A DNA stretch of 54,615 bases from a virus (lineage: Duplodnaviria > Caudoviricetes). Numbering within the stretch: the stretch's first letter is position 1; each line of letters begins with the position of its first letter. The notes under the pieces were generated by a model, which searched no databases, was not told where the DNA came from, and was given only the letters and a program-made list of their open reading frames with translations. The stretch lies in the IMG/VR virus record IMGVR_UViG_3300033067_000445, positions 1 through 54,615 of that record; one strand, written 5' to 3'. The translations under genes and the position numbers were made by a program. Shown here piece by piece: positions 1 through 4,962 of the stretch.

Positions 1-329
1 TGCTTTACATTTTTCTCGGCTTTAGATTTTCTGCCGTTGCCCATAAAGTCGACAGCGGCGTCTTCCTTGGCCTTCAGTTTTGCAGCCTTCTCGTCTTCCT
101 TGGCTTGCTTGGCAGCGTTCTTTTCCGCTTCCTTGGCAGCTTTCTTGCCTTCAGCTTCAGCCTTCTTGGCAGCGACGGCAGCTTCTTTGTCAGCTTTCTT
201 CTTGGCAGCGGCTTCAGCTTTGGCGGTGGCCTTGGCTTCGGCTTCAGCGGCCTTCAGCTTCGCAGCGGTTTCGGCAGCGGCCTTTTGTTCTTCGGTTTGC
301 TCAGCGGGAGCAGCGGTCTTGGCATTCAT
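1..329 (-). CDS. Ala/Lys/Glu-rich early protein, N-terminal part (runs off the left edge; probably continues in 54430-54615)
   Basis: ATG at 329 with AAGGA upstream; open frame MNAKTAAPAEQTEEQKAAAETAAKLKAAEAEAK... to the window edge; sigma70-like promoter upstream. Confidence 0.75.
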   Translation of the reverse strand, partial: MNAKTAAPAEQTEEQKAAAETAAKLKAAEAEAKATAKAEAAAKKKADKEAAVAAKKAEAEGKKAAKEAEKNAAKQAKEDEKAAKLKAKEDAAVDFMGNGRKSKAEKNVK

Positions 330-389
330 GATGAAATCCTTCAGTGGGTGAGTTAATTGAACGGGAACGTCCTTGCGAACGCAGAACGC

Positions 390-418
390 ACTATAAGGGC
401 GCTCTTACCTGTATGCAA
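390..418 (-). promoter_or_regulatory. sigma70-like early promoter
   Basis: TTGCAT-17 nt-TATAGT on the minus strand. Confidence 0.7.
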
Positions 419-432
419 GAGGGTTCGTTTAG

Positions 433-609
433 TCAAACTGGAATGCGCGATTTTTGCCAATCGCCCAGCGCAGTTGATGAAGTGGTCTTCTTGATGTTAT
501 GTTCGGACTCGAGGGTGCTCATCATCTGCTTGCGTAGCGCGAGCACGGCCTTGACGTCAACAGGCTTACCCGCTGCACCCCACAGCTGATCCGCTACCGA
601 CCAGATCAC
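433..609 (-). pseudogene. C-terminal fragment of the early gene starting at 2143, separated from it by the 605-1631 insertion
   Basis: VIWSVADQLWGAAGKPV...WQKSRIPV* joins in frame to ...GGNRAVI when 605-1631 is removed. Confidence 0.8.
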
Positions 610-642
610 TGTACTTTTAGGGGGTATCCGTAATCCGTTGTT
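605..642 (+). repeat. 38-bp inverted repeat, left copy
   Basis: ATCACTGTACTTTTAGGGGGTATCCGTAATCCGTTGTT is the exact reverse complement of 1549-1586. Confidence 0.95.
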
Positions 643-652
643 GATGACGGAT

Positions 653-865
653 TTAAGACTTGTGCGCAATGAGCGCAGTCTTGATTTTCAAAAGCTCCCA
701 GAAAGCCGGGTGCATGGCTCGCGCGCCAGTCTCCCATTGTTGAAATGATCGACGGGACGTGTGCAGAGCCGTTGCACACCAGTCCTGAGCCGCAGTTATG
801 CCCAGCTCAGCATCAGCTTGCACGGACTCTCGGACCTGTTTAACCTGCTCTGGCGTAGGAGTCAT
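653..865 (-). CDS. XRE-type HTH regulator, Aca-like
   Basis: 70 aa, PTPEQVKQVRE...TSRRSFQQWETGARAMHPAFWELL; last gene of a small-gene operon; ATGA overlap with the upstream gene. Confidence 0.75.
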   Translation of the reverse strand: MTPTPEQVKQVRESVQADAELGITAAQDWCATALHTSRRSFQQWETGARAMHPAFWELLKIKTALIAHKS

Positions 866-1128
866 TGGTTCGCCAGCAAGTTCATTACATCCGTTTCCAG
901 TTGCGCGCGTCCCGCACTGACCTTTGGGTCATAGGGCTGGCCGGGCTTGGATGGGGCATCATGGGCCGCGCTGTAGCGGGCGTAGGGCATCTTGTGCTCT
1001 TGGTACTTGCGGCCACTGATGACGCTCTCGGGCGTGTATACCACAGTGCCGTCCCGGCGCTGGGTCAATTTCAGGCCGGTGTTGCGTCCGTCAATCAGGA
1101 TGCTGTCGCTGGTGTCGATTTGAAGCAT
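862..1128 (-). CDS. Small hypothetical protein (candidate anti-defence/Acr)
   Basis: 88 aa from the ATG at 1128 preceded by GGAG; directly upstream of the HTH gene. Confidence 0.7.
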   Translation of the reverse strand: MLQIDTSDSILIDGRNTGLKLTQRRDGTVVYTPESVISGRKYQEHKMPYARYSAAHDAPSKPGQPYDPKVSAGRAQLETDVMNLLANQ

Positions 1129-1167
1129 GGTGCTCTCCGAAATGCCCACTGTGGCGGGCGGGTTGAT

Positions 1168-1428
1168 TTACTTGGATGCGAGGGCCAGCAGGTCGGCGAA
1201 CAGCTTGATGCGCTTGCCTGCGGCTTGATTGATGACGCGCTCTGCGTCGTTGATAGTGTTGCCCATTTCAGAACGGTTCCGGTTCGAATTGACAGCCACG
1301 ATACGGATCGTGTCGCCGAAAGAATCAGCGGCCTGTTCCTCTGCCCAGACCTTTGTGGAACCGAAACCGTTGATGTAGATGCGGATTGCGCCAGTGGCTG
1401 GGTGAGTCCAAGTGCTGAATGTTGTCAT
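1168..1428 (-). CDS. Small hypothetical protein (candidate anti-defence/Acr)
   Basis: 86 aa, AAGGA RBS, first gene after the cassette promoter. Confidence 0.75.
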   Translation of the reverse strand: MTTFSTWTHPATGAIRIYINGFGSTKVWAEEQAADSFGDTIRIVAVNSNRNRSEMGNTINDAERVINQAAGKRIKLFADLLALASK

Positions 1429-1499
1429 GTTGTGATCCTTGTGGAACGCCCGGAATCTGCCGGGACTCAGAGGACTGCTTATTTGCTGTCCATGCTTGA

Positions 1500-1538
1500 A
1501 TTATACGCGCATTGCGCACAACATCAAGAATTATTTTT
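1500..1538 (-). promoter_or_regulatory. Strong sigma70-like promoter with palindromic operator and AT-rich UP element
   Basis: TTGATG-16 nt-TATAAT; palindrome GCGCATTGCGC (1507-1517) in the spacer; AAAAATAAT upstream. Confidence 0.75.
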
Positions 1539-1548
1539 CATAGCAATA

Positions 1549-1586
1549 AACAACGGATTACGGATACCCCCTAAAAGTACAGTGAT
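1549..1586 (-). repeat. 38-bp inverted repeat, right copy
   Basis: AACAACGGATTACGGATACCCCCTAAAAGTACAGTGAT. Confidence 0.95.
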
Positions 1587-1627
1587 GTACCGAAGCCGGG
1601 GTATATCCCCGGCTAGGGACATACGGA

Positions 1628-2143
1628 CTATATCACCGCACGATTGCCGCCGCTAGGGGCCGCGATCGGTTTAGCCTGTACGGTAGGAGCGGCCTGCACG
1701 CTTGCGGGCAGCACGGGGGCAACTGGTAAAGCTGCGCCCGGCTGTAGCGCCATGGGCTCTGGTTCGAAGAGTTCTTGCAGGCGGACAGGGGTCGTGGAGC
1801 CTTTCACGTATCGGTAGAAACCCTGATCCTCCATGCTGATCTTGCGTGCCTGTACTTCAACCTCGAAAGCGTTAAACACCGATTCGGGAAGAGCCATGCC
1901 TAGCGCCATCACGCTGCGAACGAGGTGATCCCGGCTGAATCCAATGTGGTCAACCCCTGCCGTGTTGCGGTGCAGGAGCTTCAATTCCAGGTCCGTGAAC
2001 CTCGAATAAGATGCCAAGTGGTCGACGGGGAAGATAGCGACCGCCGAGTGCGCCACTTCGATGTGGGCAAGGTTGCCCAGAGCGGTGTTGTTGAGGTGTT
2101 TGTATGCGAACACCATTTTGTCGCAGTTCACTAGAACGTACAT
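1628..2143 (-). pseudogene. N-terminal part of the interrupted early protein (171 aa as truncated; about 227 aa when rejoined)
   Basis: ORF stops 1 codon after the GTGAT junction; the Pro/Ala linker leads into the missing domain found at 433-609. Confidence 0.75.
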
Positions 2144-2150
2144 GAGCGAC

Positions 2151-2321
2151 TCATCCTAACAGATCAAAAATGTAATCGGGTTCGAGTCCGAAGTCTTCAT
2201 GAAGAAGCTCTTCAGGATCCTCACCTTGGGCGACACGCTCGCGAGCGTCCTGGACAGCTTCCTCAGCAGCCTCGCGAGTCATGTCATCCCGCTGCATAAG
2301 CACTTCTACGATCGTTTGCAT
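2151..2321 (-). CDS. Small acidic hypothetical protein
   Basis: MQTIVEVLMQRDDMTREAAEE...EDFGLEPDYIFDLL; AAGGA RBS. Confidence 0.75.
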   Translation of the reverse strand: MQTIVEVLMQRDDMTREAAEEAVQDARERVAQGEDPEELLHEDFGLEPDYIFDLLG

Positions 2322-2365
2322 AGTGGTTCCTTGTTGGCGGGGAGGGTGACTCCCGCACTGCTGAT

Positions 2366-3082
2366 TCACTTAGCTTGACGACCGCGGATACCATTGAATT
2401 TTCTCCAGACATAGAATTCGCAGGACACGTTATTCTTGTTCCAGCCGTGTGCTTCAGCAAGTGCGGGCAGCTCCTTGGCGGTGACGGTAGGCTGTGCATC
2501 GAATGCGGCCCACACTTGACCACACACCGTCCCAGACGAAGGGCGCGTCACGCCGTTTTGCTTTGGGCGATCCTTCTCGATGTTGTAACCCTTGCTGACG
2601 TTCTCGCGGGTGTAGCCTGTGCGGATTTCCTTTCCGGTGTTGGCGCTGTAAGTGGTGGAACAGTGGTGGCAGAACAAGCTCACGCCTTCGTTGGCCCAGG
2701 TCTGGTCGACTTCGGTGCTGCACTTCGGGCACTTATGGACGTTCGTATGGTTGTATCCTTCCAGCTTCTCGGTCTTTTCAACTGCCTTCGGTGCAGCCTG
2801 TTGGACACGCTTGCCGTCACGGACGACCGTCACGTTCTTAGGAGGTGCAGGAGGTGCAGGAGGATTGATCAGGTTAGCGAACACATTGCTGTGAGTCGGT
2901 GCAGGAGCAACAATTTCTTCAGCGACGGGTTCCTGCACAGCGACAGTGGCGGTGGCTGCGACCAGTGCAGCACGCATTCCGTCATTGTTCATCTTGCCGT
3001 AGTTCTTGACGCCGTGTTGCTTGCACGCTTCGCGGAGTTCCGTCTTGCCCATTGCGTCGAATTGGTTGTTTGTTGATTGCAT
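2366..3082 (-). CDS. Early protein: Rho-N/SAP-like N-terminus, zinc ribbon, conserved C-terminal paralogous domain
   Basis: MGKTELREACKQHGVKNYGKMN; CPKC...CHHC; NGVTRPSSGTVCGQVW...GWNKNNVSCEFYVWRKFNG; AGGAG RBS. Confidence 0.8.
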   Translation of the reverse strand: MQSTNNQFDAMGKTELREACKQHGVKNYGKMNNDGMRAALVAATATVAVQEPVAEEIVAPAPTHSNVFANLINPPAPPAPPKNVTVVRDGKRVQQAAPKAVEKTEKLEGYNHTNVHKCPKCSTEVDQTWANEGVSLFCHHCSTTYSANTGKEIRTGYTRENVSKGYNIEKDRPKQNGVTRPSSGTVCGQVWAAFDAQPTVTAKELPALAEAHGWNKNNVSCEFYVWRKFNGIRGRQAK

Positions 3083-3147
3083 TTGATTTCTCCTAAAGAG
3101 GTTGAGGTACTTGGTTAATGGGCGTCTTCTTGTTACCCATGACCTCA

Positions 3148-3176
3148 ATTATGTGATGGAAATAAACCCGATGCAA
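3148..3176 (-). promoter_or_regulatory. sigma70-like promoter
   Basis: TTGCAT-17 nt-CATAAT. Confidence 0.7.
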
Positions 3177-3237
3177 GCGATTTTTGGGCTTGCCCACAAA
3201 TTTTTTACTTCTAGTCATAAATGTCTTGTTTTTGCGA

Positions 3238-4962
3238 CTAGAAGGGAATGTCATCGTCCGTGTCGAAGTCCGTGCTGGGCTTGGCGCTTCCAGGCGTATG
3301 CAGGGAGCGGGACGATGCAGCGGTGTCCACTGTAGGCGCAGCAAGGTCGTCGGGGGCTTGCGTGCTGAAGGCAGTTCCATCGAAGCAGTGGGCAAGGATC
3401 TCAGGATACTTCTTGTTGACCCATATACGCAAGTGACCGGCAGCTTGAAGCGTCTCAGCCTGCTCCAGCGCGAGGGCAGTGCTCTCCGGGAACGGTGCGC
3501 CGTTGCTACGCTGAGTCCACCACTGCCGAGCCTTGCGCTGTGCGAAGCCCTCATGCTGGATGCAGACGTACTCCTGGAACATGCGTAGGCCGCAATAGTA
3601 GCTCACCTTCATCATAGGAGGCGCACCGATCTTCTCATGCGCTGAGTAGGTGATGTGATCGACCTTGAACACCTCAACGATGGGAGCTTCACCTTTGATC
3701 AGCTCTTGCGTGCTGGCATACTCTTTCAACTTAGTCGTGAAATGGAACTCCGCTCCGCAGCAGATGCAGTGAGTCACGCTCGCGTGATTGTAGGTCGCAC
3801 AGCTTCCGCACAGTTTGACAGGTGCCTCCCCGCCTTTCTGACCCTTCTTACGAGGTATGACAGGATCGTTGATAGGCCCCAGGCGACGGGTGTTGCCTGC
3901 AAAGTCCAGAACAAGACAGTTCTCTTTCATGTGGAACGGACGTGTCCCACGGCCAAGCATCTGCACCCACAGCACGGGCGACGCGGTAGGCCGAAGCATG
4001 ACAATGAGGTCGATGCCTGGGAAGTCGAATCCTGTGGTCAGGACATTATTGTTCACCGCTGCCTTGTACTTACCAGACTTGAATCCTGCGATTCCCTCGT
4101 CGCGTTCATTGTCGCTCATTTTGCTATGAATGACCACAGTTGGCACGCCAAGCGAGTTCAGCATCGCGCCGACGTTCTCCGCATGTTGCACCCCTGACGC
4201 AAAGATCAGCCAATGGTTTCGGTCGCCCGCCTGTTCCATTGTTTCTTTTAGAGCTGCGAACGTGATTTCGTCTTTGTCGACTGCCAGCTGGAGCTCGGAC
4301 TGGACAAACTCGCCACCCCTCATGTGGATGCCGTTTGTGTCAAGGATCGCCTTTGTCTGCTTGGGCACCAGTGGGCACAAATATCCTTCGGCGATCAAGC
4401 GGTTGAACGCTGCCATGCCTGTAATGTCAAAGCACACGTCGGTGAAGATCCCGTCCTCAGTTATGCGACCATGCCCTAGGCGCCAAGGAGTGGCGGTAAG
4501 ACCAACCACCTTCAGGTTAGGATTGATAGATCGCAACGTGCCCAGGAGTGCCTGATACATGGTCTCCTCACTAGGGCTTACGAGGTGCGCCTCGTCAATG
4601 ATCAGAAGGTCGATTCTACCGAACAGGTGCGCCTTCTTTGCGACGGACGCAATACCCGCGAACGTGATAGGCATGTACGCTTCGCGCCTGTTCAGCCCTG
4701 CGCTGTAGATGCCAGCTGGCGCAGTAGGCCAGAAGCTCATCAGCTTGTCATAGTTCTGTTGAATCAGTTCCTTGACGTGCGTCAGCACCATAACCCGCTG
4801 ATTCGGGAAGTACCGAAACACGGATTCAAGGAACATTGCAATGACGACAGACTTACCCGTGCCCGTCGGAAGCGCCAGCACAGGATTCCCCTGCTGGCTT
4901 CCGAAATAGTCATAGATACTCTTGACCGCCTCCACCTGATAGGACCGGGGCTGTAGCAGCAT
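3238..4962 (-). CDS. SF2 DEAH-box DNA helicase (RadD/YejH-like) with zinc finger and acidic DDIPF tail
   Basis: PTGTGKS, DEAH, TAT, QMLGRGTR, CGSC/CICC. Confidence 0.92.
   Translation of the reverse strand: MLLQPRSYQVEAVKSIYDYFGSQQGNPVLALPTGTGKSVVIAMFLESVFRYFPNQRVMVLTHVKELIQQNYDKLMSFWPTAPAGIYSAGLNRREAYMPITFAGIASVAKKAHLFGRIDLLIIDEAHLVSPSEETMYQALLGTLRSINPNLKVVGLTATPWRLGHGRITEDGIFTDVCFDITGMAAFNRLIAEGYLCPLVPKQTKAILDTNGIHMRGGEFVQSELQLAVDKDEITFAALKETMEQAGDRNHWLIFASGVQHAENVGAMLNSLGVPTVVIHSKMSDNERDEGIAGFKSGKYKAAVNNNVLTTGFDFPGIDLIVMLRPTASPVLWVQMLGRGTRPFHMKENCLVLDFAGNTRRLGPINDPVIPRKKGQKGGEAPVKLCGSCATYNHASVTHCICCGAEFHFTTKLKEYASTQELIKGEAPIVEVFKVDHITYSAHEKIGAPPMMKVSYYCGLRMFQEYVCIQHEGFAQRKARQWWTQRSNGAPFPESTALALEQAETLQAAGHLRIWVNKKYPEILAHCFDGTAFSTQAPDDLAAPTVDTAASSRSLHTPGSAKPSTDFDTDDDIPF

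Follow-up and report, generated by a model that had tools for sequence, protein, structure and literature searches.

A candidate mobile acr-aca-type operon with a predicted Aca10-like repressor on a miniature ISL3-type cassette of a metagenome phage

What is carried by a short minus-strand operon in which two small genes without named relatives are followed by a regulator gene, and which interrupts a gene that is intact in other phages? We addressed this question for positions 653 to 1,538 of the virus record IMGVR_UViG_3300033067_000445 (Caudoviricetes), whose whole length of 54,615 nucleotides (nt) is called the window in the following. The original prediction for this locus, made from the letters and a list of open reading frames (ORFs), was that of a portable, self-regulated unit that delivers anti-CRISPR (acr) or other anti-defence genes under the control of a repressor gene of the anti-CRISPR-associated (aca) kind. 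In our analysis the locus may be read as a mobile acr-aca-type operon with anti-defence cargo. Taken as a whole, we regard this account as evenly balanced between right and wrong, a grade that is set by its weakest link, the anti-defence function.

The operon and its Aca10-like regulator

The operon consists of the following features, where aa denotes amino acids and HTH denotes helix-turn-helix.

1500..1527, minus strand: sigma-70-type promoter with TTGATG (1527-1522), a 16-nt spacer and TATAAT (1505-1500); 10 of 12 consensus positions.
1503..1521, minus strand: 19-nt candidate operator of Aca10 type, TTGTGCGCAATGCGCGTAT, which occupies the whole -35/-10 spacer and extends into the -10 element; like the Aca10 site at 13 of 19 positions.
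1429..1493, minus strand: 5' leader with a 5'-proximal hairpin (~1491-1472), a covarying hairpin (1464-1449) and a GCGUUCC-loop-Shine-Dalgarno element (1447-1434), from an alignment of 20 leaders.
1168..1428, minus strand: ORF86, cargo gene 1, 86 aa; homologues and a confident model.
862..1128, minus strand: ORF88, cargo gene 2, 88 aa, the constant gene of the operon family; homologues and a confident model.
653..865, minus strand: HTH70, putative aca10-like HTH repressor gene, 70 aa, by its homology to Aca10.
660..678, no strand assigned: another operator-like sequence, or a hairpin, within the 3'-terminal part of the aca gene; 15 of 16 positions are complementary to the promoter site.

Homologues were found for all three ORFs (26 for ORF86, 46 for ORF88 and 130 for HTH70), and these, together with confident folds, indicate that the ORFs are real genes and not chance frames. 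In 45 homologues the protein begins MLQID or MIQID, in agreement with the start of ORF88 at 1128; an alternative GTG at 1149 would lengthen the protein to 95 aa. The stop of ORF88 and the start of HTH70 overlap in an ATGA. Between positions 300 and 2400 there is one sigma-70-like site, at 1527..1500, against a mean of 1.2 in shuffled sequences, so the count by itself is not significant. As far as sequence can tell, the architecture appears to be that of a complete acr-aca-type operon, self-repressing in prediction.

The promoter, the two ORFs of 86 and 88 aa and the final 70-aa HTH gene named by the original prediction were all recovered, whereas its XRE label for the HTH gave way to a match with Aca10. 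Because Pfam HTH_31 stayed below its threshold on HTH70 (expectation value, E, of 0.044 and 14.5 bits against a cut-off of 27), the HTH identity of the protein rests on this match. In a phmmer search of PDB sequences, residues 22-66 of HTH70 aligned to residues 17-61 of Aca10 (7XI5_A) with E 9.8e-10 and 41.4 bits, and 20 of the 45 residues were identical by hand count. Aca10 itself, of 65 aa, is listed as HTH_31. The entry 7XI5 is Aca10 from 'Molecular basis of anti-CRISPR operon repression by Aca10' (PMC9410881); that paper describes R44 as critical for DNA binding and G49 as lying in the dimer interface. Arg49 of HTH70 aligns with R44, and Ala54, likewise a small residue, with G49.

The candidate operator points the same way, and with it the inverted repeat that had been expected in the promoter was found. 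The inner 11 nt (5+1+5) of 1503-1521 form a perfect palindrome, and the agreement at 13 of 19 positions was counted by hand against the printed minimal Aca10 site, which has the same odd-centred symmetry. The minimal Aca10 operator is described as a 19-bp palindrome (bp, base pairs) that obscures the promoter (PMC9410881), and the predicted operator occupies the same promoter position as Aca10 IR2. Related sites were seen in three other loci (L020, L031 and L034), and L031 combines a copy of the window site identical at 18 of 19 positions with a 66%-identical HTH. In Ralstonia phage Hyacinthe and on a Marinobacter plasmid an operator-like site lies upstream of small ORFs and the Aca10-like gene comes last: the Hyacinthe site is identical to the Aca10 operator at 18 of 19 positions and its 37%-identical HTH follows four small unannotated ORFs, and the plasmid has a 16/19 site, two small acidic unannotated ORFs and a 64%-identical HTH. 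We consider it highly probable that HTH70, which by its sequence would belong to the Aca10 family, acts as an autorepressor of Aca10 type, and the claim that the last gene is an Aca-family repressor is in this qualified sense borne out.

Among known systems, the acrIC7-acrIC6-aca10 operon of Pseudomonas citronellolis, as described in PMC9410881 and PMC7913775, comes closest. Both operons have two small genes followed by a homologous HTH gene of ~65-70 aa, an odd-centred palindrome between -35 and -10, and an Arg at the position of the DNA-binding residue of Aca10. In contrast to Aca10, HTH70 has Ala in place of Gly49 of the dimer interface, and the outer operator positions differ in the window. 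The cargo of the window is, unlike that of P. citronellolis, not acidic and has no detected relatives among named proteins, and the operon lies in a transposon-like cassette of a lytic-type, NP1/JG054-like metagenome phage. Regulator and operator would be members of the already known Aca10 family, with unassigned cargo and on an unusual vehicle.

The operator-like sequence at 660-678, which is complementary at 15 of 16 positions to 1506-1521 and can form a hairpin, was also listed as terminator-like on the plus strand. Both a second Aca site and a terminator are conceivable roles for it.

The mobile cassette

The operon lies entirely within an element that we denote as E1.

622..1569, minus strand: E1, 948-bp mobile cassette with the whole operon, from recurring contigs and ISL3-type ends.
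622-645 and 1546-1569: terminal inverted repeats of E1, 24 nt, 1 mismatch.
605..1636, no strand assigned: whole insertion by comparison to the empty site, 1,022 bp (610-1631) with 5-bp direct repeats ATCAC (605-609 and 1632-1636).

Two viral contigs (L021 and L022), 89% identical in protein, keep the target gene intact and provide the empty site. Contigs from wastewater, lake and freshwater runs (X2, X8 and X10) contain a copy of exactly 622-1569 at more than 99% identity; the copy on the 2,529-nt contig of X8 has 8 differences in 948 nt. The flanks of this copy are alike in the three runs and unlike those in the window, with an 8-bp direct repeat and identical loose ends. E1 is inserted in at least two genomes. 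In 16 DNA runs from 9 studies, a fraction of 0.22-0.34 of the sampled cassette words was present, the comparison at contig level covering four runs. One run is labelled as RNA (X18) and is probably DNA, so it has no bearing on expression. ISL3 elements make 8-bp target duplications.

The ends of E1 resemble those of ISL3 elements. A 4,401-bp contig (L177; G060:C44, 1-4401) begins and ends with repeats identical to those of E1 at 18 and 20 of 24 positions, and encodes an ISL3 transposase (PF01610, E 3.5e-57) together with an N6-methylase passenger. In a second genome (L176, G330) an ISL3 transposase gene (PF01610) is followed by a repeat identical to an E1 end at 17 of 24 positions. A 21-nt pattern of the E1 end, with at most 3 mismatches, occurred in 26 of 401 genomes of the order to which the Roseateles genome discussed below belongs, and the reversed control gave 6 hits in all. 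Within E1 itself the ORF list contains the three small operon genes only, and no transposase. These ends, the recurrence in other flanks and the gene content lead us to regard E1, with high confidence, as a mobile cassette derived from ISL3 and lacking its transposase. The portability assumed by the original prediction is upheld by the empty sites, by the same 948 bp in other flanks and by the ISL3-type ends.

ISL3 transposons with passengers are known, such as ISPpu12a with its passenger gene (described in PMC4447125), and acr genes near transposases have been noted (PMC7913775). E1 resembles such elements in carrying passengers and in having, at one insertion, an 8-bp repeat, and its ends agree with those of L177 at 20 of 24 positions. 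It differs from them in having no transposase, as a mobile insertion cassette or an element like a miniature inverted-repeat transposable element would, and in its passenger, an operon of acr-aca type. Among literature titles pairing anti-CRISPR with ISL3 or miniature elements, none concerned an acr-aca operon in a miniature cassette.

The surroundings of E1 in the window are more complex. Outside its ends are perfect 17-nt inverted-repeat extensions (605-621 and 1570-1586) that form a palindromic context, and 45 extra foreign bases with a 7-bp-stem hairpin follow on one side only (1587-1631). One insertion nested in another may have produced this context, or E1 may have been captured along with donor flanks through microhomology. 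Other classes of element were considered and rejected: Tn3-family ends, since the run of GGGG does not stand at the terminus and the repeats remain identical outward past it; Tn7/Tn402-type ends, since TGT starts only one end of the 1,022-bp insert; and an invertible segment, since no invertase is nearby and the whole operon is inside the segment. DNA searches with window positions 1-3200 against phages and 600-1590 against plasmids left the cassette unmatched. Viral contigs scanned with exact seeds taken from the inverted repeats gave nothing, or single hits without extended similarity, and the 60-nt left end of E1 gave nothing in plasmids.

Some observations concern the wider ISL3 group. The passengers of L177, a complete ISL3-family transposon, are the gene of the N6-adenine methylase (631 aa) and an ORF of 338 aa, and on another contig of the same genome (L162) the same repeat directly follows an Abi_2 gene. 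The methylase and the Abi_2 gene suggest that this ISL3 group moves defence genes too. A prophage (L164; G006:C1, ~1032-1521) encodes, ~30 nt from a sequence matching the E1 end at 19 of 21 positions, a protein of 146 aa whose Aca2/YdiL-like domain scores below the Pfam cut-off.

The ORF88 operon family and the role of the cargo

In order to place the cargo in a wider setting, we compared loci with an ORF88 relative, which came from viral contigs (11), metagenome contigs (11) and one genome, a Roseateles metagenome-assembled genome (MAG). Duplicates were merged (L010 and L026 into L004, L012 into L005, L016 into L015, and L024 into L023), leaving 21 distinct loci with the window included. The same leader precedes the first gene in 21 of 21; it was recognised by a regular expression in 18 loci, by eye in L015 and L030, and later in L025. 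The first gene is exchangeable. It is a relative of ORF86 in 6 loci, a DUF5710-like gene of ~80 aa in 7 (Pfam E 8e-5 and 5e-4, under the cut-off) and another small gene in 6 (L013, L014, L025, L027, L028 and L033), and it is absent in 2 (L009 and L017). Profile-profile comparison showed no relationship of ORF86 either to the DUF5710-like first genes or to ORF88.

The last gene varies as well. The window, L005 and L031 have an Aca10-like gene in this place and L004 a weaker relative; L023 has HTH_3 (E 4e-5), L030 a KorA/TrfB-like gene (E 1.2e-7), and L011, L013, L015, L018 and L029 a gene for a small basic protein that was read by eye as ribbon-helix-helix. The palindrome in the promoter spacer differs along with the regulator type. 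L023 and L024 show 92% DNA identity to the window over the leader, ORF86 and ORF88 only, and differ in promoter and regulator. Among the ORFs listed beside the ORF88 relative in L009 and L017 no regulator was recognisable. A combinatorial pattern of this kind is described for acr-aca loci, and the interchangeable first genes and repressors both resemble it and argue against a toxin-antitoxin pair.

A toxin-antitoxin or addiction module, in which ORF88 or ORF86 would be the toxin and the HTH a HigA2-like antitoxin and autorepressor that stabilises the cassette, deserves attention at this point. HTH70, like Aca10, weakly resembles HigA2 (HigA-2, E 0.21-1.3), and there is a weak match to MqsA-type antitoxins (E 0.012). 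A small gene followed by an HTH gene with overlapping stop and start is the order of higBA, as in type II systems of HigBA2 type, and one plasmid homologue (H62) is annotated 'antitoxin VbhA family protein'. However, neither ORF matches a toxin family or toxin fold, and ORF88 is not bound to one regulator: its relatives occur with at least four unrelated regulator types, at times with another gene in between. Moreover, a toxin should not tolerate the situation of L009 and L017, of which L009 is a one-gene cassette. We consider this explanation very improbable, and the refutation that the original prediction had foreseen through such a pair is accordingly disfavoured.

The leader is the other constant part of the family. 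Its hairpin at 1464-1449 has 5 pairs, which in the alignment of 20 leaders are 100% paired, and 4 of the 5 are changed on both sides; none of 500 shuffles reached its covariation score, and the slid controls all collapse. Pairing of the GCGUUCC element with the Shine-Dalgarno sequence is possible and would mask the ribosome site (1447-1434). This second helix is nearly invariant, which makes counting of covariation uninformative, and in L030, when read by eye with a one-column shift, both of its sides seem to be changed in concert. No match for the leader was found in Rfam. The transcription start assumed for the leader is a predicted one. The Marinobacter operon, which lacks ORF88, has a similar hairpin. 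A covarying RNA motif in aca10 5' untranslated regions, directly after the start site, is described in PMC13551039 (NAR 2026). The leader resembles it in having a covarying hairpin just downstream of the predicted start and at a fixed distance from the start codon, and differs from it in accompanying the ORF88 operon whatever the regulator, be it HTH_3, KorA-like or similar to ribbon-helix-helix proteins. A leader tied to the operon and not to its regulator fits the statement in that paper that the motif shows no co-evolution with Aca10 and is not bound by it.

Several loci of the family merit separate mention. In L033 a single 202-aa ORF (2653-3261) apparently joins the first gene in frame to the ORF88 homologue. 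In 8 of the 21 loci (L005, L009, L017, L025, L027, L028, possibly L008, and the window at 1559-1573) the first gene is preceded, at a distance of 111-145 nt, by a TAGGG...CCTA box, and such boxes may be decayed ISL3-type ends. L009 has a second, inverted box directly after ORF88, with 15-nt inverted repeats, and forms a one-gene cassette of ~390 bp. In the Roseateles MAG (L008, 3400-8700) an inovirus-like region contains the ORF88 module, whose first gene is DUF5710-like and which has no evident regulator; it is flanked by Zot-like genes, of the kind that serves filamentous-phage assembly, and by a ParB-like gene, these neighbours being named by eye; the operon family is thus not confined to tailed phages. 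In L004/L026 the module (7453-8127 of L004) adjoins lexA, named by eye, and is probably in a bacterial chromosome or at the edge of a prophage, as the source contig of L026 is 324 kilobases (kb) long.

Turning to the cargo itself, confident AlphaFold models were obtained for both proteins. ORF86 (isoelectric point, pI, 9.4; predicted local distance difference test, pLDDT, 93.0; predicted template modelling score 0.79) has four strands followed by two helices. ORF88 (pI 8.0; pLDDT 90.3; predicted template modelling score 0.77) is beta-rich with a C-terminal helix. The median pI is 8.2 in the ORF86 family and 7.0 in the ORF88 family. An exhaustive profile search extended the ORF88 family to 156 cluster representatives at E <= 0.001, of which 91 reach E <= 1e-10; almost all of the representatives are stand-alone proteins of 70-100 aa. 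Pfam searches on ten longer members gave no informative fused domain, and cluster look-up of ten distant relatives gave no names. With tblastn, no relatives of ORF88 were detected in 50,697 phage records and 72,556 plasmids, and none of ORF86 in the same phage records; peptide strings of the ORFs had no occurrence in the literature searched.

The claim that neither protein is a known Acr agrees with the family, structure and fold searches, in which AcrIC6, AcrIC7 and AcrIF17 were outside the comparison. ORF86 and ORF88 might then be diverged homologues of exactly these Aca10-linked proteins. The published operon acrIC7-acrIC6-aca10 likewise has two small genes and then aca10 (PMC9410881), and for AcrIC6 a wide occurrence among Alpha-, Beta- and Gammaproteobacteria and an association with transposases are described (PMC7913775). 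The evidence that sets the two ORFs apart is indirect. AcrIC6 (WP_080050315.1) and AcrIC7 (WP_003294373.1) have NCBI accessions, whereas no NCBI-sourced protein is among the 26 matches of ORF86 or the 46 of ORF88. In addition, AcrIC6 is said to be common in phages, with many homologues in Salmonella, yet the tblastn searches were negative. Such diverged homology seems very improbable to us.

For an operon with new cargo the course of events would be as follows. On entry into a repressor-free cell the strong promoter would fire, and the structured leader with its occluded ribosome site would set how strongly ORF86 and ORF88 are translated. From the last gene, by translational coupling, an Aca10-family HTH dimer would be made, which would bind the palindrome between -35 and -10 and switch the operon off. 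An ISL3-family transposase would move E1 in trans. Above all, ORF86 and ORF88 would be the payload, most likely as inhibitors of host defence.

A number of results weigh against this account. Neither ORF86 nor ORF88 had a match in Pfam, PHROGs, NCBIfam or PADLOC, or among PDB sequence profiles. The models, whose prediction the original note had called for, gave no fold match with Foldseek, either against the PDB (best E 1.1 for ORF88 and 0.55 for ORF86) or, for ORF88 alone, against BFVD (best E 0.25), and the ESM Atlas gave nothing usable for either protein. The two proteins are not acidic, which sets them apart from most of the AcrIC proteins in PMC7913775. Neither in this operon nor in the homologous operons inspected was a known acr or anti-defence gene seen, and the expected known acr genes beside the Aca10-like homologues did not appear in the loci of Ralstonia phage Hyacinthe, the Marinobacter plasmid and a Klebsiella plasmid. 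Aca-like HTH genes are reported to be widespread and at times without acr genes. As for the leader and its role, PMC13551039 states that purified Aca10 did not bind the predicted RNA motif. Finally, the copy of E1 in the window lacks the 8-bp repeat expected of simple ISL3 transposition, and neither the 17-nt palindromic context nor the 45 extra bases fit such an event.

Some of these points would also suit a regulated moron or host-takeover operon that acts outside defence (in transcription, replication or superinfection exclusion), with the Aca10-like protein as a generic early-gene repressor. The reported spread of Aca-like genes beyond acr loci and the neutral to basic cargo are consistent with it, as is the module in the inovirus-like region of the Roseateles genome. 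One of the alternative first genes is DUF5710-like, below the Pfam cut-off, and we know of no link between DUF5710 and defence. On the other hand, a strong promoter, autorepression, small interchangeable cargo, regulator shuffling and transposon carriage are together described as a signature of counter-defence, and a gene needed for phage development would be unexpected on a mobile cassette that close relatives lack. An operon outside defence is a possibility that we take seriously and nevertheless doubt. Returning to anti-defence cargo, ORF86 and ORF88 appear to be good candidates for new inhibitors of bacterial defence, by analogy with acr-aca operons; that at least one of them has such an activity could in our judgement go either way, and a specifically anti-CRISPR activity seems rather unlikely. 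We would only tentatively suggest that ORF88, with its exchangeable partners, represents a new and widespread family of counter-defence effectors, always expressed behind a single conserved, structured leader and ferried by miniature ISL3-type cassettes between unrelated phages and elements.

If ORF86 or ORF88 does inhibit a defence, the result would be new families of inhibitors with new folds, in the case of ORF88 a family in which none of the 156 cluster representatives has a relative with an assigned function. Such inhibitors would come with a ready set of regulator, operator and leader for controlled expression. The locus provides a clean natural case of an acr-aca-type operon on a transposase-less ISL3-type cassette in a phage of lytic type, with an empty site for comparison. 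It suggests that counter-defence may spread among phages sharing too little sequence to recombine, which would amount to a 'plug-and-play' lateral spread without homologous recombination, even at the price of a split phage gene. The leader and the inverted repeats together offer a search handle for further cargo of this kind.

The host phage and its interrupted gene

The insertion divides one phage gene into two pieces.

1628..2143, minus strand: N-terminal piece of the interrupted phage gene (phrog_7864), 171 aa; phrog_7864 match and empty-site comparison.
433..612, minus strand: C-terminal piece of the same gene (phrog_7864); phrog_7864 match and empty-site comparison.

In a search of PHROGs the window ORFs at 1628-2143 and 433-669 matched opposite ends of one family, phrog_7864, which is a single uninterrupted gene in the phages JG054 (246 aa) and VPv62. 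The split gene is a conserved early phage gene; the phage may tolerate its loss, or read-through from the cassette may allow the C-terminal domain to be expressed. The completeness of the 54.6-kb viral record was estimated as 90%. In its replication region the genes are similar to those of NP1/JG054-type Pseudomonas siphoviruses (JG054 being filed under Queuovirinae, Nipunavirus) and of a Variovorax phage, and one close HTH70 homologue has Rhodoferax as its named source. These resemblances suggest that the host belongs to the Burkholderiales. As regards the reading frames left by the insertion, the C-terminal domain of the split gene is without a start of its own, and the N-terminal piece stops one codon inside the insert.

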